A stretch of 64,000 nucleotides of DNA from a virus, in IMG/VR virus record IMGVR_UViG_3300044632_000653. One strand, written 5' to 3'. The notes beneath the pieces were generated by a model. That model was given only the letters and a program-made list of their open reading frames with translations. It was not told the origin of the DNA and ran no database searches. This document shows, piece by piece, positions 12,464 through 57,951 of this stretch. The translations under genes and the position numbers were made by a program. The first letter of the stretch is position 1, and every line of letters begins with the position of its first letter.

Positions 12464-12794
12464 CATCATCTCACAGGCGATGGGCATCCTCGGCGGCAAG
12501 AAGAAGGATGGTCCACCCGCACCCGCAACCACGCCACAGCGACCTCTTGTGGAGCAGTCCCCCGTGCGCACGGGCGCACCCACGCCCACGCCCACGCACG
12601 GGCGCACACCCACGCAAGTGCGTGACCGCCTGACGAGCGTCGAGCGGAAGGTGGTGGGCGAACTCGCAAGGTTCGCAGCACTCCACGCACAGATCATTGA
12701 GATCCGTCAGCGGATGGAGCAGGGCGAGAGCCACGGGCTCGTTGAGAGCCGCCTTGAGGACACGCTCCGCATCGCTAAGATCACCGTGAAGTGA
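12456..12794 (+). CDS. Hypothetical protein containing a GCAC repeat cluster
   Basis: AGGAG RBS; coiled-coil C-terminus. Confidence 0.6.
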   Translation: MSDIISQAMGILGGKKKDGPPAPATTPQRPLVEQSPVRTGAPTPTPTHGRTPTQVRDRLTSVERKVVGELARFAALHAQIIEIRQRMEQGESHGLVESRLEDTLRIAKITVK

Positions 12795-12844
12795 TCTTGA
12801 CCTGACGGCTAAAACCGAGCGGACATCCACCGATAGATACCACA

Positions 12845-13003
12845 AACCACCGTGATGCCTCGCTAGCAGGGCTATGTTCACGGGCAAGGCATCTCGTAAG
12901 GGTGCCGTGGGTGGTTGGAAGCGGTTCCCCACCCTTTCGTTGAAGCCCCACGGGAGATAGCATCTCCCGTCCGACCCCCCTTGGATCCGAGGGGGGTTTC
13001 TTC
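12845..13003 (+). ncRNA. Candidate structured ncRNA (late promoter to terminator)
   Basis: TAGATA at 12834-12839, four hairpins, then cccccc/gggggg terminator; no convincing ORF. Confidence 0.4.
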
Positions 13004-13039
13004 ATTGCTAAATACTCCCAATCAGGAGTTTGAACAGCC

Positions 13040-16559: not shown

Positions 16560-16856
16560 GTGAAGACCTTCAGCGAGTACATCATGGAGACCAACACCAC
16601 GGCAAACCTGATCTATGCGGGGACGGACTTTGCCGTCGATGATGTCGGGGGAGACTTCGATGTCGAGGACTACGAATCCGAAGACCCCGAGGACCGCAAG
16701 AAGATGAAACCGTGGGAAGTGGAGAACGCCGAGGAAGCGAACCGCCGCAGGAACCACATCCTGCAGTGGCTGAAGGCAGCGGGGGCAAATCAATCCAAGG
16801 CGGTGACCGACAAGAGTTTGCCGCTCACACCCGAATGGCAGTCGAGGACACGATGA
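16560..16856 (+). CDS. Putative internal head protein, leader MKTFSEYIME
   Basis: GTG 5 nt after TAAATA; CTS-like leader. Confidence 0.7.
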   Translation: MKTFSEYIMETNTTANLIYAGTDFAVDDVGGDFDVEDYESEDPEDRKKMKPWEVENAEEANRRRNHILQWLKAAGANQSKAVTDKSLPLTPEWQSRTR

Positions 16857-17797
16857 AGTCTTACCAGCATTTCATAAACGATCTCAACGAGATGAAGAAC
16901 ATAGGTGACGGCGACTGCATGGTGGTCGCCGCACAGATGTTGGTCTATCAGTCGTTCGGACCACACGCCGACATCGTGAACAAGGACTCCGTTCTCGTCC
17001 ATGCCCTCGTCAGGGGTCAAGGCAAGGCGAAGGGTCTCCGATTCGCCCACGCATGGGTCGAGACGGGTGACACGGTTTACGACTACAGCAACGGCAACAA
17101 GATAGCGATGCCGAAGGATGTCTACTACGCCATCGGCGGGGTGAAGGCCAAGCAGAAGGGTGCCTACTTCACATACACGCTGAAGGAAGCGAAGAAGAAG
17201 TTGCTCTCGACGGGTCACTACGGTCCTTGGGATCTTGACGAAAGCCTTGAGGAGAACAAGATCTCGGATCCCCGAGGGATCGGTCGGAAGAGGCTGCGGC
17301 TGTCCCCGAAGATGACCGATTTCCTCAAGACGAAGTTGACCGAGGCGATCATCACGGGTCGCCCGACCACGGGCATGCGCACGGGCGGGGGTGTGCGCTC
17401 CCTCGCACCCGCACAGCCGCAGGAGCATTCGTTCGTGTCGTGGAACGATCTCAAGCGGCTTGAGTCCATGCTTGATGCGCTCTTCGCACAGGCGGGTCTC
17501 GACATCGCCTTCACCAAGCACTTCTGGGAACGAATCAATGGAAGCCGTGGCTACGGTGGTACGGTTTCGATCCCCGAGTTGCAGGATGCCTTCCGCAAGA
17601 CCTTCTCCAAGTACGCACAGCAGATCAAGGGGAAGTCGGTGAATTGGAAGGCAATCATCCTCGACATCGGCAAGGACCACCTCAACATGCCCTTCGTCCT
17701 CAATTGGAGCCCACAGGAGAAGGAGATGTCCATCGTCGCCCTCACGGCGATGAAGAAGCGCAACTTCATGGCATCCGAGCCCAAACTCCCCGTCTGA
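16853..17797 (+). CDS. Two-domain putative internal protein: papain/transglutaminase-like domain + RelE/BECR-like domain
   Basis: Leader MKSYQHFINDLNE; GDC...HAWVE triad pattern; second module FTKHFWERINGSR after LTE. Confidence 0.55.
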   Translation: MKSYQHFINDLNEMKNIGDGDCMVVAAQMLVYQSFGPHADIVNKDSVLVHALVRGQGKAKGLRFAHAWVETGDTVYDYSNGNKIAMPKDVYYAIGGVKAKQKGAYFTYTLKEAKKKLLSTGHYGPWDLDESLEENKISDPRGIGRKRLRLSPKMTDFLKTKLTEAIITGRPTTGMRTGGGVRSLAPAQPQEHSFVSWNDLKRLESMLDALFAQAGLDIAFTKHFWERINGSRGYGGTVSIPELQDAFRKTFSKYAQQIKGKSVNWKAIILDIGKDHLNMPFVLNWSPQEKEMSIVALTAMKKRNFMASEPKLPV

Positions 17798-20287: not shown

Positions 20288-20361
20288 GCCCTCCTAGTTC
20301 AGTTGGATAGAACAGCGGTTTCCTAAACCGCAGGTCGCAGGTTCAAGTCCTGCGGGGGGCG
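20288..20361 (+). tRNA. tRNA-Arg(CCT)
   Basis: Acceptor gccctcc/ggggggc, anticodon arm gcggt-ttCCTaa-accgc, T-arm gcagg-ttcaagt-cctgc. Confidence 0.95.
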
Positions 20362-21931: not shown

Positions 21932-22554
21932 ACAGGGACACCTTGAAAAACCTCACCGAGGCTGCGAACGACATCGGCACCATGAGGGTGCTTGACGAGG
22001 CATCGCTGTCTCGGCTCTACCAACACACGCTCGACAGGAACATCGGCATCATCACCGCCTTCCGTGGTCGCTATCCCGTCTCCGAGAACAAGGCTAGGAA
22101 CTCCAAACTCCAAGCCGAGATCCGTGCTGCGGGGTTCGGGTTCTACCGAGTCGATGGTCACTACATCGAAGGGTACGGTTCCGAGGTCTCCAAGGATGTG
22201 AAGGAACAGGCGTTCCTCGTCATCGGGGACAAGGGAGATGACAAGGGTAGGCTCAAGGGATTCCTGCGCAAGGCGGGTGCGAGGCACAACCAAGACTCCG
22301 TTCTGTACAAGTCGTTCGACGGCAAGGCTGTCCTGATCGGCACACAGGGCAAGGACGAGGACGGCAACCCCGTCGAGTTCCCAGGTCTCGGCAAGGAGTT
22401 CTCCGTGGGCGAGTTCAAGCCCATGAAGGTCTCGCAGTTCTACTCCAAGATGAAGGGCAAGCCTTTCGTGTTTGAGTCGTACCAAGAAGCGGACACCTTC
22501 AACAGCGCATGGTTGAGGCATCTGATGGCGGGGAAAGAGCCATCGGCGAAGTAG
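21928..22554 (+). CDS. Conserved T4-like hypothetical protein with type-B leader
   Basis: MNRDTLKNLTEAANDIG..LDE then SLSRLYQH..IITAFRG..N..RN..L. Confidence 0.7.
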   Translation: MNRDTLKNLTEAANDIGTMRVLDEASLSRLYQHTLDRNIGIITAFRGRYPVSENKARNSKLQAEIRAAGFGFYRVDGHYIEGYGSEVSKDVKEQAFLVIGDKGDDKGRLKGFLRKAGARHNQDSVLYKSFDGKAVLIGTQGKDEDGNPVEFPGLGKEFSVGEFKPMKVSQFYSKMKGKPFVFESYQEADTFNSAWLRHLMAGKEPSAK

Positions 22555-22617
22555 CCCAACGGCAGAGGCATTCGATTCAAAATCGAACTAGTGTGGGTTC
22601 GACTCCCACCTTCGCTA
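22545..22617 (+). tRNA. tRNA-Leu(CAA), short variable loop
   Basis: Acceptor ggcgaag/cttcgct, anticodon arm ttcga-ttCAAaa-tcgaa, T-arm gtggg-ttcgact-cccac. Confidence 0.9.
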
Positions 22618-22629
22618 CTAGGAGGAATC

Positions 22630-23233: not shown

Positions 23234-23591
23234 GGGGTCGATCAGGTATCGAATCCATGAAGACCGATGAGTGATGCGCCACGGGAAACCATGCTAGACC
23301 CGTAAAAGTGTATGGAAACCATAACTGCCAAGTTCAATGTGCAGCCCCGTCAGCGTCTCGCTCTCGCAGCCTGACCCCGACGAATCGTCTTCCCGACTCC
23401 CTTGAGGAAGACGATCAGACCAAGGGATAGGTCGCAGGGAGTCGGGAAGCCGACTGCGACCGAGATCAAAGATCCCGAAACTGAACCCGTTCAGTCGCTC
23501 TCGGCGGCGGGTCAGTACAAGCGAGGGCTATTGGCGTAGTAGGCACCACGGTAGGCATGAGATCACGGGGGTTCGATTCCCCCCGACTCCA
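23234..23591 (+). ncRNA. ssrA: tmRNA; tag (A)AKFNVQPRQRLALAA at 23327-23374
   Basis: 5' GGGGTCG pairs with 3' CGACTCC-A including G3.U; T-arm gggg-gttcgattc-cccc; ATAACT-GCC resume context; tag ends LALAA-stop. Confidence 0.93.
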
Positions 23592-23592
23592 T

Positions 23593-23663
23593 TCGCCTGT
23601 TGTGTAAAGGTAGCACAGAAGACTTTGATTCTTCCAGTCTTGGTTCGATCCCAAGCGGGCGAG
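23593..23663 (+). tRNA. tRNA-Gln(TTG)
   Basis: Acceptor tcgcctg/cgggcga, anticodon arm gaaga-ctTTGat-tcttc, T-arm cttgg-ttcgatc-ccaag. Confidence 0.93.
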
Positions 23664-23672
23664 TTCACAGCA

Positions 23673-24680: not shown

Positions 24681-25097
24681 ATGGCGAAACGAGAGATCGT
24701 CAACACGGCGAAGCAGTTTCGCTGCCGCACACGCACCTGCGCCCCCTCCTCGGAGGCGAAGGCACTCATAGCGTCGAAGTTGGGGGCTCGGGGAAAGTCG
24801 AAGTCCAAGGGCTACGACGAGATCCTTCAGTTGGTCGAACTGATGAAAGAGTCGAATGTTTGGGGTGCGGGACTAAAAGGATACCTATTCCGAGGCGATA
24901 TCAGCACGGGGATGAAGAGTGCCATCACTTCGTTCGCCGTATCGAACGGATGGCAGATCACCCTCGGCAGACGGATCGTGAAGTACGGAATCATCATCCG
25001 AGGCGGCAAACTCAACAAGCGGCATCTCTTGATCTTCGGAAAGTACCGAGGCAAGGGCATGACTAGCAAGGCTTACTGTTCTCTCACAATCATCTGA
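24681..25097 (+). CDS. Basic hypothetical late protein
   Basis: TAAATA at 24666-24671. Confidence 0.6.
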   Translation: MAKREIVNTAKQFRCRTRTCAPSSEAKALIASKLGARGKSKSKGYDEILQLVELMKESNVWGAGLKGYLFRGDISTGMKSAITSFAVSNGWQITLGRRIVKYGIIIRGGKLNKRHLLIFGKYRGKGMTSKAYCSLTII

Positions 25098-40459: not shown

Positions 40460-41157
40460 GTAATTCGACACTCTACATCCATCACCATCTAGGGATGGGT
40501 GATCACATCATTTGCAACGGTCTTGTTCGCAGTTTGGTGGGCAACAAGGCTGACAATGTCACCCTGTTTGTGAGGACGAACAACTTTCCCCGTGTACAGA
40601 GGATGTATGACGATGACCCGAGGATTGACTACGCAATCGTTCCTGCGGAGGGGAACGAGTGTGGTTTCGTTGACGAGTACACCCGTCACCGTCAGGGCAC
40701 CCTTCTCCGTTTGGGGTTCGACCAACTCCACAAGAGTCCCACGCTGAACTTCGATCAGGTCTTCTACATCTACGCTGGTGTACCTTTCAGTAATCGATGG
40801 GACAAGTTCTTCGTCAAGAGGGATCCTGATGGGGAGTCGAAGGCGATTGCAAAGTTGAATCCCACAGGAGAGCCCTACATGTTCGTCCATGACGATTCAT
40901 CCCGAGGGTTTCTGATCAATCCACCGAATCCGAGAGGACTGAAGGTGATCAAGAACGATGTTTCCGTGGGTATATTCGACATGATTGGAGTGCTTGAGGG
41001 TGCGGAGGAAATCCATTGCATGGAGAGTTCGTTCCGATGCCTCATTGAGAGCGTTCCCTCCATTACATGCCCCCTGTTCCTTCACAAGATGGTGAGGTTC
41101 GCCAACCAACCCAATCCCGCCCTGTCATTGGGAAGGAAGAGGTGGGTCGAGGTATGA
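40456..41157 (+). CDS. Putative glycosyltransferase (GT-B-like)
   Basis: HHLGMGDHIICNGLVR..AEEIHCMESSF. Confidence 0.6.
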   Translation: MSNSTLYIHHHLGMGDHIICNGLVRSLVGNKADNVTLFVRTNNFPRVQRMYDDDPRIDYAIVPAEGNECGFVDEYTRHRQGTLLRLGFDQLHKSPTLNFDQVFYIYAGVPFSNRWDKFFVKRDPDGESKAIAKLNPTGEPYMFVHDDSSRGFLINPPNPRGLKVIKNDVSVGIFDMIGVLEGAEEIHCMESSFRCLIESVPSITCPLFLHKMVRFANQPNPALSLGRKRWVEV

Positions 41158-42053: not shown

Positions 42054-42867
42054 TACCTCCCAACTCGCACGGTACTTCCCTCGGGATTTCGTCCGCATTT
42101 CCTCTAGGGACATGGACCTCGACTCGCTCTCCGAACAGGAGTGGGACGAAGTCTACATCTGCTTCGCCGAACAGAGGACCTACCTAGCCAACAGCGACTC
42201 CCCTGATGTCGAGCGCATCTTCCACGACACGAATGTCGTGAGGACGATGGAGGTCATTGATGCCCTGCATCCTGTTTGTCGGAGGATCGTGTACTACTCC
42301 ACGGCTGAACTTTGGAATGCAACTTCGGGTCCCGTCGCCCCATCGGACCCATACACATTCCATGAAAACCACTACACGAAATCCAAGAGCAGCGTCTCGC
42401 TCCTGTTGCGTGACAAGGTCAAGTATCCGAAGGTGACGGTAGCCCATCCGTTCAACTTCAACAGCGTTCACCGAGGGGGCGAGTATCTGTTCGGCAAGAT
42501 CTTCCGATCAATAGTGACCGAGTCCCCCGTCGCCATCGGCGATGTCGATTACTACAGGGAGATCCTGCATCCCACCATGGTGGTCAAGGCGACATTGGAC
42601 TCCACGGAGAACGACCCTTTGGGTACGGACATCGTCATCGGCTCGGGCAGACTCGTCCATGTCGGGGACTTCATACGAAAACTCTACCTTCGATTTGGGA
42701 TGGACATGGACAAAATGGCGATCAGGGACCCACAGAATCCTCCCCGACCGTCGATATACCGCAAGTGCCTTTTCTATTCGCACAGGCACGATCCCCGATT
42801 TTCGGAGGAAGCCGTGATCAACCTCCTTACCTACGAACTATCTACTGTGAAGGAATTTTCGACATGA
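42031..42867 (+). CDS. NAD-dependent sugar epimerase/reductase-like SDR
   Basis: YSTAEL, Y..SK, PFNFNS, IG.VDYYR. Confidence 0.65.
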   Translation: MPSLVVGSTSQLARYFPRDFVRISSRDMDLDSLSEQEWDEVYICFAEQRTYLANSDSPDVERIFHDTNVVRTMEVIDALHPVCRRIVYYSTAELWNATSGPVAPSDPYTFHENHYTKSKSSVSLLLRDKVKYPKVTVAHPFNFNSVHRGGEYLFGKIFRSIVTESPVAIGDVDYYREILHPTMVVKATLDSTENDPLGTDIVIGSGRLVHVGDFIRKLYLRFGMDMDKMAIRDPQNPPRPSIYRKCLFYSHRHDPRFSEEAVINLLTYELSTVKEFST

Positions 42868-43220
42868 GCAACGACATCGCCCTGACAATCGAAGATGCCA
42901 TCAGGCATAAGGTCCATGAGACGCTTCGTCTTTCGGGATCCAATCCTCCCGAACTTCCCGACAATCTCGTCGCTACCGACAACCTCGGTGAAGTGATTGA
43001 GAAACTCTGCATCCTCCACATCCGTACATGGTTCCTTGAGGACATGGTAGGTGTCGCAAAGACGGACGAAGAGGTCGCCTCCTTGAAGAGGAAGATCGAC
43101 ATCTGCTTCAAGCAGAAGAGACCGCAGTACATCCAAGCGATCAACCGCATGGTTGACGATGCGGTGATCAACCAAAGGCGCATCACGGAAGACTCCGTGA
43201 AGATCTACAAGGGGAACTGA
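42864..43220 (+). CDS. Small helical protein (DUF4254-like)
   Basis: LGEVIEKL.ILHIR.W.LED..R...IQAIN. Confidence 0.55.
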   Translation: MSNDIALTIEDAIRHKVHETLRLSGSNPPELPDNLVATDNLGEVIEKLCILHIRTWFLEDMVGVAKTDEEVASLKRKIDICFKQKRPQYIQAINRMVDDAVINQRRITEDSVKIYKGN

Positions 43221-44389
43221 TGATTCACCCAATTACCTTGGTGCGTGACACCATCGATCAGGATGACATCGGTTCCTTGATCGAATGGCTCAAAACCAAC
43301 CCACGCCTCACCAAGGGGGTGAAGACGGTTGAGTTTGAACAGGCGTGGAGCGGTTGGCTCGGCTGCAAGTACTCCGTGTTCGTGAACTCGGGCTCATCTG
43401 CGAACCTTGCCATCCTGTACGCCCTCATCATCTCGGGTAGGCTTAGGAACAAGAAGGTGGTGTTCCCCTGCCTCTCTTGGGTCACCACCGTGGCACCTGC
43501 CATCCAACTCGGGCTTGAACCGATCCTTTGCGAGACGGACAGCCGCAACCTCGGGATCGATGTCGCAGAGTTTGAGAAGATCTGCGAGCGGGAGAGTCCC
43601 GCTGCCGTGATGATCGTGCATGCACTTGCCTTCCCCAACGACATGCGGGGCATCAGGGAGGTGTGCGAGAAGTACGGTGTGATCCTGCTTGAGGACTCAT
43701 GCGAGAGCGTGGGTACCTTGGTGGATGGAAAGAAGACAGGCACTTTCGGTCTTGCCTCTTCGTTCAGCACATACTACGGTCACCACTTCTCGACCATCGA
43801 AGGCGGCTTCGTCTGCACCGATGACTACGAGTTCTACAACATCGTCAAGAGCATCCGATCCCATGGATGGTCTAGGGACCTTGACGAGGTGACCCGTAGA
43901 GATCTCCAACTGAAGTACGGGATCGATGACTTCAGGAACCTCTACACCTTCTACCATGCGGGATTCAACCTGCGCTCGACGGACCTACAGGCGTTCATCG
44001 GGATCAGTCAGTTGGAGAAACTCGACCGCTTCTGCGAGATGCGCTACGAGAACCTGCTGACATACGACAGGCTGATCCGAAACCCGTATTGGAAGATCGA
44101 CATCTCGCAGTTCGACTTCGTGTCCAACTTCGCATACCCCGTGATCCATCCCCTGTCTGCGACGATGGTCGAGAAACTGACGGCAGCGCATGTCGAATGC
44201 CGACCGTTGATAGCAGGAAGCATCTCAAGGCAACCGTTCTTCTACGAGAGGTATGGAAAGAAGGCGTATCCGTTCTCGGATCGCATCCACGACCACGGCA
44301 TCTACCTACCGAACAACCCGACGATGACAGAGGACGAAATCAACATGGTGTCCAACATCATCAACGGAGTCACATCACATCCGAGTTGA
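43220..44389 (+). CDS. DegT/DnrJ family PLP enzyme, ColD-type 3-dehydratase
   Basis: VNSGSSAN, EDSCE, STYYGHHFSTIEGG (His in place of the usual Schiff-base Lys). Confidence 0.85.
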   Translation: MIHPITLVRDTIDQDDIGSLIEWLKTNPRLTKGVKTVEFEQAWSGWLGCKYSVFVNSGSSANLAILYALIISGRLRNKKVVFPCLSWVTTVAPAIQLGLEPILCETDSRNLGIDVAEFEKICERESPAAVMIVHALAFPNDMRGIREVCEKYGVILLEDSCESVGTLVDGKKTGTFGLASSFSTYYGHHFSTIEGGFVCTDDYEFYNIVKSIRSHGWSRDLDEVTRRDLQLKYGIDDFRNLYTFYHAGFNLRSTDLQAFIGISQLEKLDRFCEMRYENLLTYDRLIRNPYWKIDISQFDFVSNFAYPVIHPLSATMVEKLTAAHVECRPLIAGSISRQPFFYERYGKKAYPFSDRIHDHGIYLPNNPTMTEDEINMVSNIINGVTSHPS

Positions 44390-44404
44390 AAGAGGAAAAG
44401 CAGC

Positions 44405-45091
44405 ATGTCGCTTATTGACCTGAATCAAAAACCTCTACCTCTGTCGATACACATCCTCACCACATCTCTGAACAGGGATAGGCATCAGTCTATTCTGAAC
44501 ACATGGCTCAAAGATTTCTACGACTATGTGTTCTACACCGATTTCACTTCTGAAATAGGAAATCAAGTAGAACTTACCACGAACACGGAGTACCACTCCA
44601 ATGGGGAAAAGCACATTCTTGAAGTGAATAGAATCGTGAGGGAGAAGATCCACAACGATTACCAATGGTTCTATTTCTGCGATGATGATACGGTCCCCAA
44701 CATATCAAGGATCTTGGACTACTGTCGTACCGCAGACCGAAGTAAGGTTCATGCTTGGACGGACACCTGTTGGGCAGAGGATCCGACTTTACTATCCGTT
44801 TCGGGTGGTGCTGGATATCTCGTTCCTTCTGAAGTATTCCAAGGAAGGACACCCCCAAGGCTGAAACGGATCGTGTGGTCCGATGTTCAATTTGCTCTGT
44901 GGCTGCGAGAGAACGGCATACCGTTGCAACACAATTCCGAGTTCAAGCACAACATCCCATCTCAGTTCGGAATCGACATTTCCACGGTGGAGGGCAGGAA
45001 CTTGGTGAGGGAACACATGTCTTTCCACTATGTCAAGAACCACGAACTGCGATCTGCGATATGGGAAATCTACAACACACCCAAGGAATGA
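44405..45091 (+). CDS. Fringe/GT31-like glycosyltransferase
   Basis: TW, WFYFCDDDT, SGGAGY, SDV, SFHY; AT-richer than flanking genes. Confidence 0.7.
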   Translation: MSLIDLNQKPLPLSIHILTTSLNRDRHQSILNTWLKDFYDYVFYTDFTSEIGNQVELTTNTEYHSNGEKHILEVNRIVREKIHNDYQWFYFCDDDTVPNISRILDYCRTADRSKVHAWTDTCWAEDPTLLSVSGGAGYLVPSEVFQGRTPPRLKRIVWSDVQFALWLRENGIPLQHNSEFKHNIPSQFGIDISTVEGRNLVREHMSFHYVKNHELRSAIWEIYNTPKE

Positions 45092-45110
45092 AGATATGGG
45101 ATTGCAATCC

Positions 45111-45201
45111 ATGAAGACTCTCGTCACAGGCGCAGCAGGATTCAAAGGACGAGATCGGCATGGTTTCAGACATCGTCAACAGCGTCACATTGGAGAAATG
45201 A
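45111..45201 (+). pseudogene. Deletion scar: epimerase N-terminus fused to DegT-like C-terminus
   Basis: MKTLVTGAAGF then, in another frame, KDEIGMVSDIVNSVTLEK*, resembling the end of 43220 (EDEINMVSNIINGVT). Confidence 0.7.
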
Positions 45202-45768
45202 ATGGACCACATTTACACACAGCCGCAGTTTGGAGAGAATTGGTTTACCTATCCGAACCTCTACTCACAATTTGTCCGTGAACTGCCAAGCGGTTCCAAG
45301 ATGGTGGAGGTTGGTTGTTGGAAGGGAAAGAGCATCGCCTACCTCGGGGTCGAGATCATCAACTCAGGGAAGGACATCCATGTCCATGCCATCGACACTT
45401 GGGAGGGATCGCCAAACGAACCTCCACATCAGCAGGATGTCTATGTCCGAACGGGGAAACTCTATCAGTTGTTCCTGTCGAACATCTCCCCCGTCTCTTC
45501 CGTGGTGTTTCCCGTGAAGGTCGCTTCGGTCGAGGGCGCAAAGAGGTATGCCGATGAGTCCTTGGATGTCGTGTTCATCGACGCATGCCACACCTATGAG
45601 TGCGTCAAGGAGGACATTGCAGCATGGCTTCCGAAGGTGAAGAAAGGCGGCTACCTTGCGGGACATGATTACCCTTGGAGCCATGAGGATGCCGTAAAGA
45701 GAGCGGTGGATGAGAGCGTTTCTCCAATCCAAGTCACCGAGGGATGTTGGGTCTATAAGAAAAGGTAA
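45202..45768 (+). CDS. Class I SAM methyltransferase (Methyltransf_24-like)
   Basis: VEVGCWKGKS, IDTW, FIDACHTYE, GHDY. Confidence 0.88.
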   Translation: MDHIYTQPQFGENWFTYPNLYSQFVRELPSGSKMVEVGCWKGKSIAYLGVEIINSGKDIHVHAIDTWEGSPNEPPHQQDVYVRTGKLYQLFLSNISPVSSVVFPVKVASVEGAKRYADESLDVVFIDACHTYECVKEDIAAWLPKVKKGGYLAGHDYPWSHEDAVKRAVDESVSPIQVTEGCWVYKKR

Positions 45769-45773
45769 TCAAG

Positions 45774-46679
45774 ATGAATGCCATGGTCACAGGTGCGGCG
45801 GGCTTCATCGGCTCGCATATGGTCGATCTCCTACTGAACCACAGGCACTCGGTTGTCGCCGTAGACAACGAGAGTTCAGAGTCGCATGCCAAGTTTCATT
45901 GGAACCCGCTTTGTGATAACAGATTGTCTGATGTTTGCGACCTCACGCCACTCGACTTCGACGGTGTGGATGTGGTGTTCCATATGGCGGCTGAAGTCAG
46001 CATCCCGAAGTGCATGGCACACCGTGATCAGGCTTTCAGCACCAATGTGATCGGAACATGGAATGTCCTCGACTGCGCACAGAAGGCGGGAGTGCGTCGG
46101 CTCGTCTTCTCGTCCACCTCGGCGATCTACGGAGTCAGGGCAAGCGGTTTCTCTCCTCCTGTGAAGGAGACTGATTCCATCGACTGCCCGAACAACTACG
46201 CAACGAGCAAGTTCATCGGGGAGCAGTTGTGCAAGCAGTACTCTCTTCTCCACGGACTCGACACGGTGTGCCTCAGGTACTTCAATGTCTTCGGCGAGAG
46301 ACAGGCTGACAGGGGGTCATATAGCCCCGTCATCGCATCGTTCCTGCGGATGCGAAGGGAAGGCAAGCCCCTCCTCATATTTGGAGATGGTCATCAGTCG
46401 AGGGACTATGTCCATGTCTCGGATGTGGTCAGGGCGAACCTCATGGCGGCTGACCATCCCCACGCCCTCCACGGTGAGGCAGTCAACATCGGAAGTTGGC
46501 GGTCTTCGTCGGTACTAGAGATCGCCCGTGTAATATCCCCCGACGAAAGGTCGATATGCTTCATGCCGAAGCGTGAGGGTGAGGTCAGGCATTCGTTGGC
46601 TGACTGTGGCAAGGCTGCTTCCCTGTTCGGTTGGAAGGCAAAGACGGATGTGATGGATTGGATACGGAATGCAACCTAA
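45774..46679 (+). CDS. NAD-dependent epimerase/dehydratase
   Basis: VTGAAGFIGS, SSTSAIYG, YATSK, RYFNVFG. Confidence 0.92.
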   Translation: MNAMVTGAAGFIGSHMVDLLLNHRHSVVAVDNESSESHAKFHWNPLCDNRLSDVCDLTPLDFDGVDVVFHMAAEVSIPKCMAHRDQAFSTNVIGTWNVLDCAQKAGVRRLVFSSTSAIYGVRASGFSPPVKETDSIDCPNNYATSKFIGEQLCKQYSLLHGLDTVCLRYFNVFGERQADRGSYSPVIASFLRMRREGKPLLIFGDGHQSRDYVHVSDVVRANLMAADHPHALHGEAVNIGSWRSSSVLEIARVISPDERSICFMPKREGEVRHSLADCGKAASLFGWKAKTDVMDWIRNAT

Positions 46680-48144
46680 CACGGACAAGATCGAAGTCGC
46701 CATCCTCAGAAGCCTCCTGCACCTGTCGGAGTTCACTCGACGGGTGCTTCCCTTTTTGAAGGAAGCCTACTTCCACGATCCCTGCGAGAAGAGGCTGTTC
46801 CTCACGATCTCGGAGTTCACCTCCAAGTACAACGCACCGCCGACCGAGGAGGCACTCAGCATCATCCTCGGTCAGCAGGACGGGATGTCCCAAGGCGAGT
46901 ACGACGAATGCGTTCGACTTCTGCCTCTCCTTGGCGAGCCTCAAGAGCATCCCGACCTCCAATGGCTCATCGATCAGACGGAGAAGTTCTGCAAGGACAA
47001 GGCGGTCTACAACGCTCTCATGGAGTCCGTCGAACTCCTTGACGAGAAGCGGTCGAAGGGGAGGTCCAAGGCTGCTATCCCCGAGATCCTCAAGGAAGCC
47101 CTCAGTATCTCATTCGATGAACACATCGGTCACGACTTCATTGAGGATGCCGAGCGGCGGTACGAGTTCTACCACAAGGTGGAGAAGAAGACACCGTTCG
47201 ACCTCGACATGTTCAACAAGATCACCAACGGCGGGGTGCCCGACAAGACCCTCAATGTGATCCTTGCGGGAACTGGTGTAGGCAAGTCCCTGTTCATGTG
47301 CCACCACGCCGCCAACTGCCTCTCGCAGAGCAAGAATGTCCTCTACATCACCTGCGAGATGGCTGAGGAGAGGATCGCCGAGCGCATCGATGCGAACCTC
47401 ATGGACATCACATTGGATGACCTCAAGAAGTTGCCGATGGATGTGTACGCCAAGCGGCTCTCCAAGGTCACGGCGGGGATCACGGGCAAGTTGTTGATCA
47501 AGGAGTACCCCACGGCATCGGCGAACGCAGGGCACTTCCGACACCTCCTTGACGAACTGCGGCTGAAGAAGGACTTCAAGCCCGACATCATCTTCATCGA
47601 CTACCTCAACATCTGCGCCTCGGTGAGGTTCAAGCCTGGAGCGAATGTCAACTCCTACACCTACATCAAGGCGATTGCGGAGGAACTCCGAGGTCTCGCC
47701 GTGGAGATGGCGGTGCCGATCTTCACGGCAACACAGACCAACCGCTCGGGGTTCGGCAACACGGATGTTGACCTGACCGACACATCCGAGTCGTTCGGAC
47801 TTCCCGCCACCGCCGACTTCATGTTCGCACTCATCGCCACCGAGCAGTTGGACGAACTCGGTCAGGTCATGGTGAAGCAACTCAAGAACCGCTACAACGA
47901 TGTCGCCACGAACCGAAAGTTCGTGGTCGGAATCGACCGTGCCAAGATGAAGTTGTTCGATGTCAGCGATCCAACGGCGAACCTCGTCAACGCAGCCGTG
48001 AACGACGATGACGATCCCGCCCCCGTGCGCCCACGCCCCCACGCACACGGGCGCACGGGCGTGAACGCATGCGCACCCACACGGGCGCACGGGCGCACGG
48101 GCGCACGGAAACCACCCATCGATGATGACGATGGATGGACCTGA
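46669..48144 (+). CDS. gp41: Replicative DNA helicase
   Basis: AGTGVGKS, IKEYPT, IDYLN, ATQTNR, SESFGLPATAD, QLKNRY. Confidence 0.97.
   Translation: MQPNTDKIEVAILRSLLHLSEFTRRVLPFLKEAYFHDPCEKRLFLTISEFTSKYNAPPTEEALSIILGQQDGMSQGEYDECVRLLPLLGEPQEHPDLQWLIDQTEKFCKDKAVYNALMESVELLDEKRSKGRSKAAIPEILKEALSISFDEHIGHDFIEDAERRYEFYHKVEKKTPFDLDMFNKITNGGVPDKTLNVILAGTGVGKSLFMCHHAANCLSQSKNVLYITCEMAEERIAERIDANLMDITLDDLKKLPMDVYAKRLSKVTAGITGKLLIKEYPTASANAGHFRHLLDELRLKKDFKPDIIFIDYLNICASVRFKPGANVNSYTYIKAIAEELRGLAVEMAVPIFTATQTNRSGFGNTDVDLTDTSESFGLPATADFMFALIATEQLDELGQVMVKQLKNRYNDVATNRKFVVGIDRAKMKLFDVSDPTANLVNAAVNDDDDPAPVRPRPHAHGRTGVNACAPTRAHGRTGARKPPIDDDDGWT
48016..48108 (+). repeat. GCACGGGCGCAC-based repeat cluster in helicase tail (related clusters at 12561, 17355, 34020, 35889, 57193)
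   Basis: Tandem cacgggcgcac units. Confidence 0.85.
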
Positions 48145-48248
48145 CCTGCACATGGACGGGTGCCTGAATCGGAAAAAGGTGGTCGCTTATAACGGCCCTC
48201 ATGTGGGTTCGATCCCCACCCCGTCTACTCATAGATACGGAAAATACC

Positions 48249-49406
48249 ATGCTCACATTCAAGGAAGTCGGCACCACAGAGATCACCCGCAACAAGCACC
48301 TCCCCCATGTCGAGGACCTCATGTTCCTTGAGGGAAAGGGAGGTCTCGCCTCCTCGCTCCACATCCTCGCCGAGGTGATGCGTCAGTCCGATGGCATCAG
48401 GATGTCGGTGAAGTGGGATGGTCGCCCCGCCATCGTGTGTGGGATCAATCCCGAGAACTCCAAGTTTTTCGTCGGCACGAAGGCGGCGTTCAACAAGGAT
48501 GTCCGTGCGTTCGACACCAAGGATGGGATCATGGCGGGGGTGGAGAACCCCGACCTCGCCGAGAAGTTGGTCGAGTGCCTCGCATGGCTCCCTAGCCTCG
48601 GCATCCGAGGTGTCGTGCAAGGCGACCTCCTGTTCACCTCCGATTCCATCACGGTCACCGAGGAGGAGGTGGCGTTCCAACCCAACGCCATCAGGTACTC
48701 GGTCGGAAGGAACACCGCCGTGGGCAAGGCGATCAGCAACGCCAAGTTGGGTGTCGCCTTCCATACGGTCTACGAGGGCAAGACCATGGGATCGCTCACG
48801 GTCTCCTCGTTTGGATTCGACCCTTCCATGGTCGCACAGGATTCCCCCGTTTGGTTCCCGAGCATCTCCGTACACACCCTCACGGAAAGCACTCCACTTG
48901 AGAACGCCACCAATGAGGCGAGGCTCCACTACTGCGAGGAGCAGTCGGAGAAGGTCGGGCAGTTCCTCGGGACCATGCTCTCAAACAAGGAACTCGTCCC
49001 CTTCCTCTCCCCCTACATCAACGCCACGGTCATGGCGAACATCTCGGAGTGTTCGGCACGGGGTCTTGCCCTCTACATCGAAACCAAGGTGGGCAAGGAG
49101 ATCCTCAAGTTGAAGACCGACAAGGGCAGGTCGGACAAGAAGGCACTAGCAGACCGCCTGATCAACTTCACCGAGGTCTACGCCAAGCAGTTCGATACGG
49201 CGTTTCTCCTACATAGGAAGATGGCTCTCGTAAAGGAATCTCTCCTCCAAAGGGTGCCTCTTACCGAGTTCCGCCATCACTTTGTCGATGCCGAGGGCAT
49301 GCGACCGACCGAGCCCGAGGGAATCGTCGTGAGTGAGTCCAAGAGAGCCGTGAAGTTCGTGACACGGTCACGGTTCTCGGCGCAGAACAGGAAGGTAAAC
49401 GGGTGA
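48249..49406 (+). CDS. Conserved T4-like phage protein (DUF6267-like; ligase-type KxDG motif)
   Basis: NKHL.HVED, SVKWDG.PAIVCG, FFVGTK, QGDLLF, PEG.V; TAGATA at 48232. Confidence 0.75.
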   Translation: MLTFKEVGTTEITRNKHLPHVEDLMFLEGKGGLASSLHILAEVMRQSDGIRMSVKWDGRPAIVCGINPENSKFFVGTKAAFNKDVRAFDTKDGIMAGVENPDLAEKLVECLAWLPSLGIRGVVQGDLLFTSDSITVTEEEVAFQPNAIRYSVGRNTAVGKAISNAKLGVAFHTVYEGKTMGSLTVSSFGFDPSMVAQDSPVWFPSISVHTLTESTPLENATNEARLHYCEEQSEKVGQFLGTMLSNKELVPFLSPYINATVMANISECSARGLALYIETKVGKEILKLKTDKGRSDKKALADRLINFTEVYAKQFDTAFLLHRKMALVKESLLQRVPLTEFRHHFVDAEGMRPTEPEGIVVSESKRAVKFVTRSRFSAQNRKVNG

Positions 49407-52400
49407 AAGGTTTCTCCACACACATCAGCGAGCGTGGTCCGAGGGACACCGCAGTCTTCTCGTTCGGGCGCATGAATCCTCCGACAACGGGACATGGTGT
49501 GGTGGTGGACACGGTCGTTGAGGAGGCTAGGGCTCTTGATGCCGATCACTTCGTCTTCCTCTCCCGCACACAGGATGCAAAGGTGAACCCCCTCTCGACC
49601 GAGAAGAAGGTCGAGTACATGAAGGCGTTCTTCCCGAATACAAACATCTCCACCGAGGCTACGAACCCCTTCGATGCCGTCCTGCATCTCTGCGACATGG
49701 GATACAAGAACATCGTCCTCGTCACGGGAGATGATCAACAGGCTGACTACGAGCGCATCCTGAAGTACAAGGGAACGGTCGCCGCCAAGGATCCAAAGGG
49801 AAGGTCCTACTCGTTTGAGTCGTTCCGAGTCCGTGTGGCGGGGGAGCCCCGCTCCAAGGATTCGACGGGACTCGCAGCCGTGGGTGCGACCGATGCCCGT
49901 GAGGCGGCTTTCAGAGGCGACTTCGCCGCATTCTCCGCACTCATCCCCACCGAGGACGGTCTCCTCAAGGAGCGGCTCTACAACGATGTCCGCAAGGGTC
50001 TCGGTCTCAACGAGGAGTATGTCGAGGAGGCTCGGGAGAACGGAGACAAGGTCACCATCCTCGCCCTGACATCCTCGGACAAGGATCTCTCGGACACGAT
50101 TGAGAAGATGGGGGAGATCTGCAAGAAGCGCAAGATCCCCTTCTATGCCGTCAAGACGAAGAAGGCGCAGATCGACCTGTCGAGCGTCGTGGCGAAGAAG
50201 ATCACCATCAAGAACTATGACGGCGAAGGCAAGGATGTGACCATCGTTCCGAGCGACACGATAGCAATCGTCCGTGGCGGGGTTATGAACAGCGAGGTCG
50301 GGGTTGCGATCCTCACCATCCTTCAGAACAACGGCGTGTTCATGGTGAACGAGAAGGGGGGTATGGAACTCTGCGCCAACAAGTTGGAGACCGCCATCGC
50401 CCTCAAGAAGCACGGTCTGCCCCACCCAAAGACCGCCTATGTCTCTAGCGAGGCGAACATCGAAGCCGCAGTCAAGGAGATCGGGGGCAAGTTTCCCGTC
50501 ATCTGCAAGACCCTGACGGGTGCCGAGGGCATCGGTGTCTCCAAGATCGAAAGCATGGAGAGCCTCAAGAGCGTCCTACAGACGCTTTGGAAGTTCGGTG
50601 CCGAGATCATCATCCAAGAGTTCCTCCCCGACTTCAAGAACGATGTCCGCAGCATCGTCCTCAACGGCAAGATCTTCGCCTGTGCCAAGCGTGACAAGGC
50701 ACCGAAGGACTTCCGCACGAACATCGCCCGTGGATCGAAGGGCGGCTCGTTCCAACTCTCCGACGAGGAGATCAAGTTGGTCGAGCAAGCCGCTCGGGTG
50801 AGCAAGTGCTACTATGTCGGAATCGACCATGTCATCAACGATGGCAAGCCGTACATCATTGAGATGAACGCAAGCCCTGGCAGCGGCAACATCTACTACC
50901 GCTACTACGAGGACGGCAAGGGCAAGGACAATGTCAAGGGCGAGGAGTTGGTCGAGGACTTCCTTGACCACATCCTTGTCAAGGCAAATTGGAAGTTGTT
51001 CTCAAACCTCGCAGTCCGTGAGACGGTGAAGGTCGATGGCGTGGAGTACCAAGCCAAGATCGACACGGGGAACAGCGGCTACAACATGATCCATGCCACG
51101 GAGATCAAGGACAACGGCGACCACACCGTCACCTTTAGGCTCCCGAGCGGCAAGAAGGTGACGAAGAAGATCATCAGCCGCATCAGCGTGAAAAGCGGGA
51201 TCGGGGAGAAGAAGCGTCTCGTCGTGCTGATGGACATCGACTTCCACGGGAAGCACTATCCGAACATCAAGTTCTCCCTCGGCGACCGAAGCCACATGTC
51301 GAGCAAGGTCCTCGTCGGTCTCCGATTCCTCGGACAGACGGGCAGCGTGGTTGACCCCGCCGATGCCATCTATCCTCAACCCGACCCCAAGAAGAAGGGG
51401 GTGACCGAGGAGGAGGAAGAGGAGGAGGAGATCTCGGAGATGTCTGCGGTCGAGGTGAAGGACGCAGCCAAGGAGATCATCACAAGCCCGTTGGTGGCGA
51501 CCAAGGTATTCGCTCTCGCCAACAAGAAGAAAGTGCTGACTCCCGAGGCTTTCAAGAAGGAAGTTGAGACAACGAAGCAGGAAATCCTCGCCCACGCATA
51601 CAAGGTCACGGGCGCATCCGTGACCTTGAACATGTTCCTACAGAAGACCATGTTGGGCAAGTTCTTGGTGAAGATCCTCGACAAGGTCCTCATCCAAGGA
51701 ACCATCGACCCCGTGATTGTGGGGAAGGCTCTCCACTCGGCTATTCCGTATCTCGGCATGGGCGACGATGTCGATGGCAATCCCCTCGTCGAAGCCGATG
51801 TCACCAAGGGCAAGAAATTCAAGACCAAGTCGGGCAAGACGAGGAAGTCGCCCGAGGACAAGACCTCGGGTCTCCCGAAGAAGTATGTCTCGGGATTGAG
51901 CAAGGGCGAGGCGAAGACCCGAAGCAGGGAACTCGCCAAGCGGAAGGACATGCCCGATGACGATCCCAAGACTTGGGAGTTCGTGAATCCACGGGAGAAA
52001 AAGATGAAGACGAAGCCGTCGAAGTACACGACGCTGTTCAAGAAACTCGCCAAGAAGGGCAAGGTCAAGGCTATCAAGAGCGGCTACGAGCATGACGAGG
52101 CTTTGGAGCGGCTGTGGTCCATTGACGAGTCCCAAGAGACGAACTCGTCCAAGTTGAGGCTAGCCATCGCCTACGAGGACCGATGCCGTGAGCGAGGCAT
52201 GTCGGAGGCTACCGAACTCGTCAGGGCGTACATCGAACAACTCAAGGAAGTCCGCAACGAAGAGATCGGCACGGACGAGCCCACCACCATTGACGAGGAC
52301 TTCGACTACCTGCTGATGGAGGTGAGTCCTCCTAGCGGACCCGCCCGTCGATTCTCCAAGAAGGAGAAGGTCAAGGCTCAGTTCAAGAAGAGGTACGGCA

Positions 52401-53005
52401 AAGATTGGAAGCAGGTCTTCTACGCCACGGCATGGAAGATGCACGGCAAGTCCGAGTCGGTCGTGGTCGCCGACGAATGGCTTGCCGAGGCTGACAGGAT
52501 CCACGGCGTGATGAAGTGGACCTCCTTGAGCAAGCGTGGTCCCCTTGAGATAGGCAGCGACGAGATCGTCAAGACCTACAAGCGTGACACTCCAGGTGAG
52601 CGTGAGCGTCTCAAGGAGGAGGGCGGCGAGGAGATCGATGACGAGAAGAGGCGGCTCTACAAGGAGTGGCAGAAACTCGTCAACATGTCGGGCAAGGAGA
52701 TCCAATCGTTCCTCGACTCCGATGGTGGCGAGGAGGCGGGATTGAGCCGCAAGGAGGCGGGTAAGGCGGGAGCGGGTGGCAAGAAGATCACCAGCGGTCG
52801 TGACTCTGCCCGTGCGATCATCCGAATGCTCGACACCCCGATGGTGAAGTGGAGTGCCAACGATTGGAAGTGGGCGGGTAAGCAAGTCAACTTCATCTCC
52901 CGCATGAAGGGTGCGAAGGGCGGCATGCGTGACGAGAAGGGTCGCCCCACCCGCAAACTCCTAGCACTCAAGGTTTGGGGTCACAACCCCGAGAAGAAAG
53001 GCTGA
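49403..53005 (+). CDS. 1200-aa polyprotein: CTS-like leader, HIGH-type nucleotidyltransferase, RimK-like ATP-grasp ligase, retropepsin-like (RimB-type) protease, poly-Glu, small basic modules, DUF3140-like C-terminus
   Basis: MKGFSTHISE; FGRMNPPTTGH; NKLET..P.T..FPVICK..G.EGIGV..QEF..DVR..FRTN.ARG..GID..EMNASPG; AKIDTGN; E8 at 51407-51430; LVNMS..SGRDS..WGHNP. Confidence 0.85.
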   Translation: MKGFSTHISERGPRDTAVFSFGRMNPPTTGHGVVVDTVVEEARALDADHFVFLSRTQDAKVNPLSTEKKVEYMKAFFPNTNISTEATNPFDAVLHLCDMGYKNIVLVTGDDQQADYERILKYKGTVAAKDPKGRSYSFESFRVRVAGEPRSKDSTGLAAVGATDAREAAFRGDFAAFSALIPTEDGLLKERLYNDVRKGLGLNEEYVEEARENGDKVTILALTSSDKDLSDTIEKMGEICKKRKIPFYAVKTKKAQIDLSSVVAKKITIKNYDGEGKDVTIVPSDTIAIVRGGVMNSEVGVAILTILQNNGVFMVNEKGGMELCANKLETAIALKKHGLPHPKTAYVSSEANIEAAVKEIGGKFPVICKTLTGAEGIGVSKIESMESLKSVLQTLWKFGAEIIIQEFLPDFKNDVRSIVLNGKIFACAKRDKAPKDFRTNIARGSKGGSFQLSDEEIKLVEQAARVSKCYYVGIDHVINDGKPYIIEMNASPGSGNIYYRYYEDGKGKDNVKGEELVEDFLDHILVKANWKLFSNLAVRETVKVDGVEYQAKIDTGNSGYNMIHATEIKDNGDHTVTFRLPSGKKVTKKIISRISVKSGIGEKKRLVVLMDIDFHGKHYPNIKFSLGDRSHMSSKVLVGLRFLGQTGSVVDPADAIYPQPDPKKKGVTEEEEEEEEISEMSAVEVKDAAKEIITSPLVATKVFALANKKKVLTPEAFKKEVETTKQEILAHAYKVTGASVTLNMFLQKTMLGKFLVKILDKVLIQGTIDPVIVGKALHSAIPYLGMGDDVDGNPLVEADVTKGKKFKTKSGKTRKSPEDKTSGLPKKYVSGLSKGEAKTRSRELAKRKDMPDDDPKTWEFVNPREKKMKTKPSKYTTLFKKLAKKGKVKAIKSGYEHDEALERLWSIDESQETNSSKLRLAIAYEDRCRERGMSEATELVRAYIEQLKEVRNEEIGTDEPTTIDEDFDYLLMEVSPPSGPARRFSKKEKVKAQFKKRYGKDWKQVFYATAWKMHGKSESVVVADEWLAEADRIHGVMKWTSLSKRGPLEIGSDEIVKTYKRDTPGERERLKEEGGEEIDDEKRRLYKEWQKLVNMSGKEIQSFLDSDGGEEAGLSRKEAGKAGAGGKKITSGRDSARAIIRMLDTPMVKWSANDWKWAGKQVNFISRMKGAKGGMRDEKGRPTRKLLALKVWGHNPEKKG

Positions 53006-53008: not shown

Positions 53009-53269
53009 ATGAAGAACTTTGGGGGAATCAAGAAGGACATCATGGAAGCCCGCATCGCCGCCTTGGAGAAGAAGGCGAAGAAGAGCGGCATCCCATACGG
53101 CATCCTAAAGAAGGTCTACGACAGGGGAATGGCTGCATGGAAGGGGGGTCACCGTCCAGGTGCCACCTCACACCAATGGGCATTTGCCCGTGTCAACTCG
53201 TTCATCGTGGGCGGGAAGACCCGCAAGACCGCCGATGCCGACCTTTGGAAGAAAGCCAAGGGCGGTTGA
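53009..53269 (+). CDS. DUF5824-like small basic protein with leader MKNFGGIKKDIME
   Basis: KKSGIPYGILKKVYDRG.AAW..GHRPG....QWA.ARVNSF. Confidence 0.75.
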   Translation: MKNFGGIKKDIMEARIAALEKKAKKSGIPYGILKKVYDRGMAAWKGGHRPGATSHQWAFARVNSFIVGGKTRKTADADLWKKAKGG

Positions 53270-55744: not shown

Positions 55745-56131
55745 ATGTATGAGCCGCTGACGGAAGACAACTACATCCGTTTCGCCATGAAGCACTACGA
55801 TAATCCCCTCTGCAAGGGGGTTGCGGAGTTTGAAGATGACATGGCGAGGCTCGTCTACCTCAAGAGGCTGTTCAGGCGGTACAGGAAAACGGGAGTCCTT
55901 CGGGAACGCCTGATCCTCAACCACATCATCGTCTTCTGCAATGTGTTCGGGGTCGAGGCGGGATGCCGCCTCCTCTTCCATCGCATCGAATCCGACCTCC
56001 ACTACATACTGAAGACCTTCCTCGTATACCTCGGGTATCTGCCCGAAGGACAGCCGAAGTTTAGGCTTGAGGTCGATGTCCTAGCCATGGTGATGGACAT
56101 GGGAATCATCCAACGGCTGAGGGGAATCTGA
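55745..56131 (+). CDS. Conserved T4-like phage protein
   Basis: FAMKHYDNP.C...EF..D..R..Y.KRL..RLILNH.I...NVFG. Confidence 0.8.
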   Translation: MYEPLTEDNYIRFAMKHYDNPLCKGVAEFEDDMARLVYLKRLFRRYRKTGVLRERLILNHIIVFCNVFGVEAGCRLLFHRIESDLHYILKTFLVYLGYLPEGQPKFRLEVDVLAMVMDMGIIQRLRGI

Positions 56132-56796
56132 TGTCATCCGTCGTAGACCTACTGATCTCATACAAGTTCGCACAGATCCTTGCCACTCCATGGAATCAGA
56201 TGGAGGCTTACAGGTTGGGGATCATCGATGCGGGGGGCAAGATCCTCAAGCCTCGGGCTAGCCTCAAGACAGCCGAGGAAAAGAAAGCGTATCCCTCGGT
56301 CTTCTACACCTTGGCTTGGAACATCAAGCGATTGCTTGAGTTCAACTCGCCGTGTCTCCTCGGAAAGGGCATCAACCTAGCCAACCGCAGCGAGTTCGCA
56401 GTCAGGACGATCCTCCTCAAGGAGTACTGCGAGAGGCAGGGAGCCGATCCAAATCTGATCGAAAGGTTGGTTTCGGAGGAACTCGACCGAAAAGGTCTGC
56501 TCCTATGGACGATGAATGAAGAGACGCAGCCCGTGGCAATCGAAGCGGGGTCCTATCGCATCCGTGGTCGAAGGGTCGCCCTCGACAGCCAACTGCTACC
56601 CACAGACGAGTTCTTCGGGTTCCCGATCTACAGGCTCGGGAGCCTGATCTTCACGATCAACGATGTCCAAGAGGACGCTCCTGCGAATGCGGTCGGACAT
56701 GGCAACATCGCAGGTACATCACCAGGTCAGGAACCACCAGGTCGCCGAGGTCTGCTCTTCAAGCGGAAGATCAGGCGACAGGCTTCTTCTGGCTGA
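56131..56796 (+). CDS. Conserved T4-like phage protein
   Basis: TPW....AY.LGIID..G; C-terminal EDAPAN..G.G.IAG. Confidence 0.7.
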   Translation: MSSVVDLLISYKFAQILATPWNQMEAYRLGIIDAGGKILKPRASLKTAEEKKAYPSVFYTLAWNIKRLLEFNSPCLLGKGINLANRSEFAVRTILLKEYCERQGADPNLIERLVSEELDRKGLLLWTMNEETQPVAIEAGSYRIRGRRVALDSQLLPTDEFFGFPIYRLGSLIFTINDVQEDAPANAVGHGNIAGTSPGQEPPGRRGLLFKRKIRRQASSG

Positions 56797-56916
56797 ACCG
56801 CTATGTATGCGGCTGTTTAGCCGTAAAAGTCGTAAAATCAAGAATCCCATAAGATTGTATTCAGCAAGTCCTTGTGGGGCTTAGTTCTCATACACTTATG
56901 GTTTGATCCTATAACT

Positions 56917-57951
56917 ATGCCTCTGTTTCTCGACACCAAGTACATCAACATGCTCTCGCCGAAGTTGGAACGCTTCGCATGGAAGAAGCCGAACCATCTC
57001 GCCGTATGCAGGTGTCCCATCTGCGGGGACTCCAAGAAGAACGGCAACATCTGTAGGTTTTACTTCTACGAGAAGAAGGGGTCGTTCTCCGTCAAGTGCC
57101 ACAACTGCGACTACGGAGCCTCCCTCGGGTGGTTCCTCAAAGGGTTCGATGGAAACCTTCACAGGCAGTACACCTTTGAGGTTCTAAAGGAGACGGGGTC
57201 GCACACGCACGGACGCACGGGCGCACACACGCCCACGCACGGACCCGCACACCCGCATGCCCGTGCGGGGGAGAGCCCGATCCTCAAGGAGATACCGAGG
57301 CTCTGCGATATGTCCGATACCCACGAAGCGGTTGTGTGGGCTAGGAAGAGACGCATACCCACCGAGGCGATGTGCCGCCTCTACTACGCCGATGACTACT
57401 CGGAATGGGCGAAGGGCATCGATCCCGAGATCAAGATCCCATCCGAGGGCAGGGTTGTCATCCCGATCCTCGACCCCGAGGGGAGGTTGGTGGGTGCCCA
57501 AGGCAGAACACTCGTCAAGACGAGCGGCATCCGATACATCACCGTCAAGGCTGATAAGGACTCGGACAAGATGTGGTATGGGATGGACAGGGTCGATCCA
57601 CGAAAGCCCGTGACGGTGGTCGAAGGTCCAATCGACAGCCTGTTCCTTGACAACGCCGTGGCGATGATCGGTCTGTCGAACGCCCTCAACATACCCGAGA
57701 GGCTGAAGGATGCCGAACTCAGGTACGCCATCGACAACGAGCCCCGAAACCGTCAGGTGGTCGCTGCGATGGAGATGATCGCCGAGAGCAGCCATTCCAT
57801 CTGCGTTTGGTCGGACAGGGTTGCGGGGTACAAGGACATCAACGACATGGTCCTCTCGGGCATGACGAGATCCATGATCGAAGCCGAGATCGCAAGAAAT
57901 TCCCATCGTGGGATCGCTGCACATGTTGCGATCAAGAAGTGGCATAGATAG
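56917..57951 (+). CDS. gp61: DNA primase
   Basis: CPICGDS..CHNC Zn finger; VVEGPIDSLFL, DNEPRN, KDINDM TOPRIM motifs. Confidence 0.96.
   Translation: MPLFLDTKYINMLSPKLERFAWKKPNHLAVCRCPICGDSKKNGNICRFYFYEKKGSFSVKCHNCDYGASLGWFLKGFDGNLHRQYTFEVLKETGSHTHGRTGAHTPTHGPAHPHARAGESPILKEIPRLCDMSDTHEAVVWARKRRIPTEAMCRLYYADDYSEWAKGIDPEIKIPSEGRVVIPILDPEGRLVGAQGRTLVKTSGIRYITVKADKDSDKMWYGMDRVDPRKPVTVVEGPIDSLFLDNAVAMIGLSNALNIPERLKDAELRYAIDNEPRNRQVVAAMEMIAESSHSICVWSDRVAGYKDINDMVLSGMTRSMIEAEIARNSHRGIAAHVAIKKWHR

Follow-up and report, generated by a model that had tools for sequence, protein, structure and literature searches.

Short GC-rich repeats recur within unrelated genes of an uncultured T4-like phage, those for DNA polymerase (gp43), helicase (gp41) and primase (gp61) among them, which raises the question of what these repeats are and what keeps them there. 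The window, the whole 64,000-nucleotide stretch analysed, comes from a genome with 57% GC; it encodes all three of these proteins and carries all of its identified genes on the + strand. Four tRNA genes and one tmRNA gene are present (Table 1). The sequencing runs that match the window are lake-water metagenomes, its helicase is only about 60% identical to those of the nearest cultured phages, and the relatives compared below are incomplete IMG/VR contigs. In other lake-water runs, contigs reach across both the helicase and the primase repeat with 0–1 letters different, and diverged relatives carry orthologous repeats, which together rule out an assembly artefact.

The first-pass annotation had described seven clusters of a 12-mer and its variants, mostly in linkers or tails, with a core translated in three frames. 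All seven clusters were confirmed with their positions and enclosing genes, as was the reading in three frames, and the preference for linkers and tails is supported. Every copy of the 12-mer lies inside a cluster, but only four of the seven clusters contain one; it is absent from those at 17355, 35889 and 24724. The clusters are better described as in-register dinucleotide tracts, which in the window are 20–92 bp long and are built almost solely from CG, CA/TG and CC/GG steps in a single register. The published B-to-Z energies of the CG, CA, TG, CC and GG steps are 0.7, 1.3, 1.3, 2.4 and 2.4 kcal/mol, respectively (Table 1 of PMC3024258). These are the cheapest anti-syn steps, and across the genomes compared the tracts keep them in one register over 20–140 bp. 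With a Z-score built on these energies, the six main clusters take the top six places in the window (14–48, the next segment scoring 12), and step frequencies in the tracts follow the energy table closely (Spearman −0.95). Perfect purine–pyrimidine alternation did not single out the six clusters in the window; tolerance of CC/GG is required.

Table 1. Tracts, RNA genes and candidate partner or host-indicating genes of the window.
Feature	Position	Strand	Z-score	Context
Tract	12559–12632	.	34	112-aa gene of unknown function, 12456–12794 (+)
Tract	17360–17437	.	26	Interdomain linker of 314-aa gene, 16853–17797 (+)
Weak tract	24726–24745	.	10	Near start of 138-aa gene, 24681–25097 (+)
Tract	34020–34047	.	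14	DNA polymerase gp43, 32740–35274 (+)
Tract	35889–35936	.	24	Loop of polysaccharide deacetylase, 35292–36041 (+)
Strongest tract	48016–48107	.	48	C-terminal tail of helicase gp41, 46669–48144 (+)
Tract	57200–57271	.	37	Linker between zinc-binding and catalytic domains of primase gp61, 56917–57951 (+)
tRNA-Arg	20288–20361
tRNA-Leu	22545–22618
tmRNA	23234–23594
tRNA-Gln	23592–23664
tRNA-Ile (anticodon UAU)	48154–48228			Directly 3' of gp41; kept in eight relatives including tract-less G004
Protein with dockerin tail	7889–8959
Small winged-helix protein	9344–9631	+
ParB-like gene	11500–12330	+		Does not track with tracts
Small basic DUF5824 protein	53009–53269	+

The tracts are unevenly spaced (1.9–12.1 kb) and lie at no fixed distance from the TAAATA late-promoter cores, of which the window has one per ~5 kb. 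Relatives' versions of the 12559 tract differ by hexamer units (6 and 12 nt). The 17360 tract is orthologous in G002, G006, G007 and G008 and absent from G003 and G004, and the weak 24726 site scores 15–16 in G003, G007 and G009. The helicase tract ends 47 nt upstream of the tRNA-Ile(UAU) gene. A sub-threshold segment at 5756–5785 scores 11 in the window and 16 at the same site in G002, and is possibly a tract in the making. We also note that many small genes, at 1732, 2169, 2549, 7567 and 16559, begin with a common short N-terminal motif (repeat family D9) and often start just 3' of a late-promoter core. Genes for sugar modification, which by sequence resemble glycosyltransferases, aminotransferases, methyltransferases and epimerases, are grouped at 37626–46679 in a block that varies among relatives.

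The repeat had been taken to be polar, with its core always on the + strand. For the longer words this holds: the window has six copies of the 12-mer on the + strand and none on the − strand, and within tracts the 8-mer CACGGGCG is distributed 12:0. It does not hold for the tracts as such, since the inverted hexamer CCCGTG occurs four times inside window tracts and relative G006 has a 140 bp tract inverted with respect to its gene, in the hydrophobic start of a lysozyme-like protein (near a contig end, which leaves the copy number less sure). The Z-type orientation is therefore not fixed. As the identified genes all lie on the + strand, 'same strand' here merely means 'coding strand'. Read from their reverse face, the window tracts would encode 20–37% Cys/Val/Trp/Met/stop, compared with 0–15% as they stand, and the CA-rich face may lie on the coding strand for this reason; the strand bias most likely reflects protein tolerance.

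None of 150 codon shuffles produced a segment scoring at least 20, compared with five observed in the window, so that the frequency of clusters is not explained by the shuffled background. A more constrained null, in which synonymous codons were resampled with local context so as to keep the protein, the codon context and 35 avoided words, gave p ≤ 0.004 for six window tracts and p = 0.04 for the weak 24726 tract; over eight genomes, 32 of 34 tracts reached p ≤ 0.004, these including orthologues that are not independent. Because the 34 tracts had been picked by score, five linkers were redefined by protein alignment. In these, 270 CG steps fall in register and 14 out of register, compared with eight and four in the tract-less relative G004. 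Single changes in the linkers stay Z-compatible in 36 of 57 cases, close to the 51–62% expected (linker edges included). When the codons of CACGGG and CCCGTG were held fixed, 23 of 29 linkers were still Z-favourable at p ≤ 0.016. This masked-word test was weak for the deacetylase tract, with p values of 0.05–0.12 in four of seven cases.

The deacetylase loop is also the best case for selection on the protein, under which His/Thr/Gly/Arg-rich linkers would be favoured and the DNA pattern would be a by-product. Its tract is 48 nt long in every relative, and its peptide is likewise conserved, down to 45–50% overall identity, and is kept in G004. Peptides at the other sites, however, vary widely among relatives, and the peptide-keeping nulls are rejected. 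The explanation is thus refuted except for the deacetylase and 24726 sites, and as a general account we consider it extremely unlikely. The earlier proposal that selection acts on the nucleic acid rather than on the protein is upheld by the constrained null, the silent sites described below and the masked linkers, with the reservation that the deacetylase loop is conserved as protein as well.

Silent sites were compared between tract and background in three separate lineage pairs, giving identities of 85 versus 58%, 90 versus 45% and 83 versus 47% (p = 3e-9 to 2e-6); against tract-less G004 there was no such excess. Over its 48 nt the deacetylase tract does not differ between phages that agree at 58% of silent sites elsewhere. 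Tract DNA is therefore under purifying selection at silent sites, which argues against neutral slippage. Functionless low-complexity DNA, with slippage, micro-inversion and gene conversion filling tolerant linkers with even-length units, would account for the tandem 6-, 8- and 36-nt units, for lengths that vary among relatives and for the loss of tracts in one lineage, and restriction-site avoidance steers codons towards these words. It would leave silent sites less conserved, not more, and is largely refuted by this result; moreover, orthologous tracts are more alike than tracts within one genome, and tracts persist at 45% GC in G005 and G009. We regard this explanation as very unlikely.

Selection might instead act on RNA or on another fold (hairpin, cruciform, G-quadruplex or Z-RNA), or on a translation pause between domains, which the placement in linkers would suit. 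A fold with z ≤ −2 was obtained for five of the 34 tracts and a canonical G-quadruplex pattern for three, all three in the gp41 tail. Most tracts nevertheless fold no better than shuffles (z from −3.1 to +2.1), CA-only tracts are incapable of self-pairing and there is no Rfam match at the tracts, while tract codons are not rare as a class and the orientation can invert. A hairpin or G-quadruplex element was accordingly rejected, with a stem in only five and G-runs in only three of the 34 tracts, and this group of explanations as a whole seems to us highly improbable.

The particular wording of the tracts is linked to the sites that these phages avoid. The window has no occurrence of CGCG, CCGG, ACGT, AGCT or GCACGC, and 35 words of four to six letters are near-absent. 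The avoided set varies: CCGG is tolerated in G003, G005 and G006 and CGCG in G004, G007 and G009, suggesting different host defences. Two adjacent DNA methyltransferase-like genes (30933–32743) are patchy among relatives; a link between them and the tracts was rejected, as tract-bearing G007 has no match to either. With CGCG, ACGT, CCGG and GCACGC purged, (CG)n would be unavailable and the series CG-CA-CG-GG favoured in its place. Successive CG-CG steps occur in tracts only where the lineage tolerates CGCG (26 versus 0). Under the bans of the window CACGGGCG, at 1.27 kcal/mol per step, costs least among units in which every second step is CG; it is not the cheapest overall, CACACG and CATGCG costing 1.10. 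Methylation of CG makes flipping cheaper and, if the phage DNA is methylated, could account for so CG-dense a unit. Of 117 occurrences of CACG, 71 are followed by GG, as are 13 of the 23 in lineages that allow CGCG. CACGGG is thus commoner than Z energy alone predicts, and its predominance even where CGCG is allowed admits a protein that recognises it.

Such a protein, of the phage or of its host, might bind CACGGG or CACGGGCG in B-DNA, the tracts being arrays of sites for genome organisation, replication or packaging and their even register a by-product of 6- and 8-nt duplications. CACGGG or its complement is found in 31 of 34 tracts, mostly above the null, and persists where CGCG is allowed; the new tract in gp43 rewrote an exact 10-mer, and the apparently non-coding tracts of unrelated phages hold the same word. 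On the other hand, three tracts lack any copy, spacers keep both the register and a Z-favourable composition once the words are masked, and copies 6–8 bp apart would present different faces of the helix. Outside tracts the word shows no tract-linked enrichment: the hexamer occurs there 70 times compared with 40–58 expected, about equally in tract-less G004, a mild excess that does not bear out a Chi-like genome-wide signal. Word arrays are the main alternative to Z-DNA, and we consider them possible but rather unlikely.

The ParB-like gene beside the first cluster had been proposed as a partner. It is confined to the closest relatives, and G007 (93% complete, with five tracts) has no match in a search that covered the window's ParB-like protein only; a link between this gene and the tracts is thus not supported. 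DUF5824 has a somewhat different distribution. Besides the small protein in Table 1, a second DUF5824 piece lies at ~51815–52060 inside an open reading frame for 1200 residues. Both pieces are missing in tract-less L205–L207, and every tract-bearer whose contig covers the region has DUF5824, as would suit a word-reading protein; yet outgroups without tracts have it too, and tracts and DUF5824 were lost together only once. On this one co-loss, DUF5824 is a lead only. A fold comparison indicated a small helical protein without a clear match (best Z 5.1), and a literature search found no paper naming DUF5824. The reading frame itself (49403–53005) is a fusion with matches to a RimK-like ATP-grasp, a putative Zn-protease family (PF05618), DUF5824, DUF3140 and DUF6321.

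Comparison of the relatives indicates how the tracts arose. Within a single freshwater clade of T4-like phages, sites are shared in the primase linker, the helicase tail, the deacetylase loop and two unknown genes by relatives with 57–99% primase identity and 43–57% GC, in which units and peptides differ. On a helicase tree two changes account for the distribution of tracts, a single gain and a single loss, and the tract-less lineage (G004/L205) is nested among tract-bearers (SH-aLRT 87; 94 for the clade, in a quick tree). The gp43 tract is young, being absent or weaker in relatives at 79–89% identity, compared with which seven of its 12 residues have been replaced and its length is unchanged. 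The tracts were therefore gained once, are still being added and have been lost in one nested lineage. They are not insertions, as had been thought possible: in gp43 the tract took the place of a segment of equal length, and the primase linker measures 60 nt in relatives whether or not they carry a tract (75 nt in the window).

When 2.9 million viral contigs were scanned for a double motif, there were 27 matches, of which 21 were helicase tails of this clade. In G007 the strong tracts are confined to ~22–63 kb of 168 kb. None of 71 distant T4-like primase loci (897 kb) has a tract and 77 of 80 distant helicase loci have none, but these are a weak control because most are AT-rich; a GC-matched one is provided by tract-less G004 (43% GC) and tract-bearing G005 and G009 (45–46%). 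Long in-register tracts also occur in unrelated phage contigs (L140:1895–1998, L178:6354–6810, L197:4758–4935 and L407:4607–4700), where they are clustered and apparently non-coding, several with the CACGGG word.

Among the options that the first-pass annotation listed, Z-DNA is the best fit. An approximate two-state supercoiling model was applied to a 5 kb domain, with an assumed torsional constant and no competition from melting. In this model nothing flips at a superhelix density of −0.04 and onset falls between −0.04 and −0.05; at −0.05 the tracts reach −4 to −9 kcal/mol, compared with −2.5 at best for the background and G004, so that the tracts would be the first segments to flip. This outcome leads us to read the tracts, with moderate confidence, as supercoil-triggered Z-DNA segments that selection maintains within coding sequence, where they may buffer torsion or offer junctions. 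The phage would place them in linkers as the sole places that tolerate His/Thr/Gly/Arg/Ala/Pro peptides. During infection, co-directional transcription of the region would generate negative supercoiling and cause the tracts to flip, which is the weakest step of the proposal; flippable segments at one per 2–12 kb through the replication-gene region could then act as torsional buffers. Alternatively, B–Z junctions might serve as start sites of recombination-dependent replication. Besides the wording of the tracts, their lack of a fixed distance to late-promoter cores and the confinement of strong tracts to part of G007, further points count against Z-DNA: a related lineage lives without tracts, and the energy ranking would equally fit any word composed of such steps. 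Little has been shown directly in vivo for regulation by Z-DNA in bacteria, where torsional buffering is the leading hypothesis for Z-forming elements (PMC13463272).

A more specific proposal gives Z-DNA a working role during infection: the tracts would flip inside the host cell, where a phage protein with no relation to Z-alpha would recognise them. DUF5824 is the sole lead for this protein, and we regard the proposal as unlikely. If true, it would mean a new kind of Z-DNA reader, in what would be the first phage known to have a functional Z-DNA system. The known readers are Z-alpha systems (ADAR1, ZBP1, poxvirus E3L and giant-virus Z-alpha), with which the small winged-helix protein shares only a generic fold: Z-alpha structures are among its tied best matches (Z 6.4, r.m.s.d. 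3.3, 65 aligned). It is not supported as a reader, as it lacks the Asn/Tyr/Pro/Trp residues that contact Z-DNA and is kept in tract-less G004. There were no PF02295 (Z-alpha) matches in five phage contigs and 61 Phycisphaerales-family genomes, which are incomplete and in which no positive control registered.

The host of the tract-bearing clade is probably a member of the Phycisphaerales, an indirect assignment drawn from the dockerin tail, whose four best cellular matches are all Phycisphaerales genomes. To our knowledge, few phages of this order are known. An outer-membrane-like protein of the window, searched as a further clue to the host, had no cellular match, and the 12-mer is no commoner in five Phycisphaerales genomes than its reversed control.

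The tracts resemble several known elements without matching any. By sequence and modelled energy they would be flipon-like: with the flipons of cellular genomes and eukaryote viruses they share in-register CG and CA/TG steps with CC/GG as tolerated breaks, and by published energies they are long enough to flip at physiological supercoiling (PMC3024258). Flipons, however, are described mostly near promoters or as microsatellites, whereas the phage tracts lie in protein-coding linkers and avoid (CG)n; unlike described flipons, they also show purifying selection at silent sites and a mapped gain and loss. Each of Chi, KOPS, uptake sequences and HIP1 consists of one word enriched throughout a genome, and the first two are polar. 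Like the tracts, they are DNA-level signals that override codon choice in all frames, but the tracts are clustered, degenerate, held in register and invertible. Clustered short repeats near DNA-metabolism genes are shared with parS/ParB and iteron arrays (e.g. T4 oriE), from which the tracts differ in having no constant unit or helical spacing, no adjoining AT-rich unwinding element and a dispensable ParB-like gene. A tree-of-life survey of Z-DNA-forming sequences gives bulk densities, and its text does not mention phages (bioRxiv 10.64898/2025.12.30.697008). Our literature search, with subscription journals outside its coverage, found no report of selected coding Z-type tracts in phages; Z-forming sequences are already known, and it is such tracts in a phage that are undescribed as far as we found.

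It has long been asked what, if anything, Z-DNA does in bacteria and the viruses that infect them, and direct evidence is scarce. In these phages, selection on a Z-type register is sufficiently strong that silent sites have been fixed and residues of polymerase, helicase and primase altered, and restriction-site avoidance can recast a structural DNA signal into an apparent motif. The nested tract-less lineage is a natural loss, and the tracts are short enough to be easily synthesised and tested on plasmids, where the Z-DNA and word models predict opposite outcomes for register-breaking and word-scrambling mutants. Should the word model prove true, the tracts would still be an undescribed DNA signal running through core replication genes; taken as Z-type DNA, they suggest that this clade has an undescribed structural use of its DNA.
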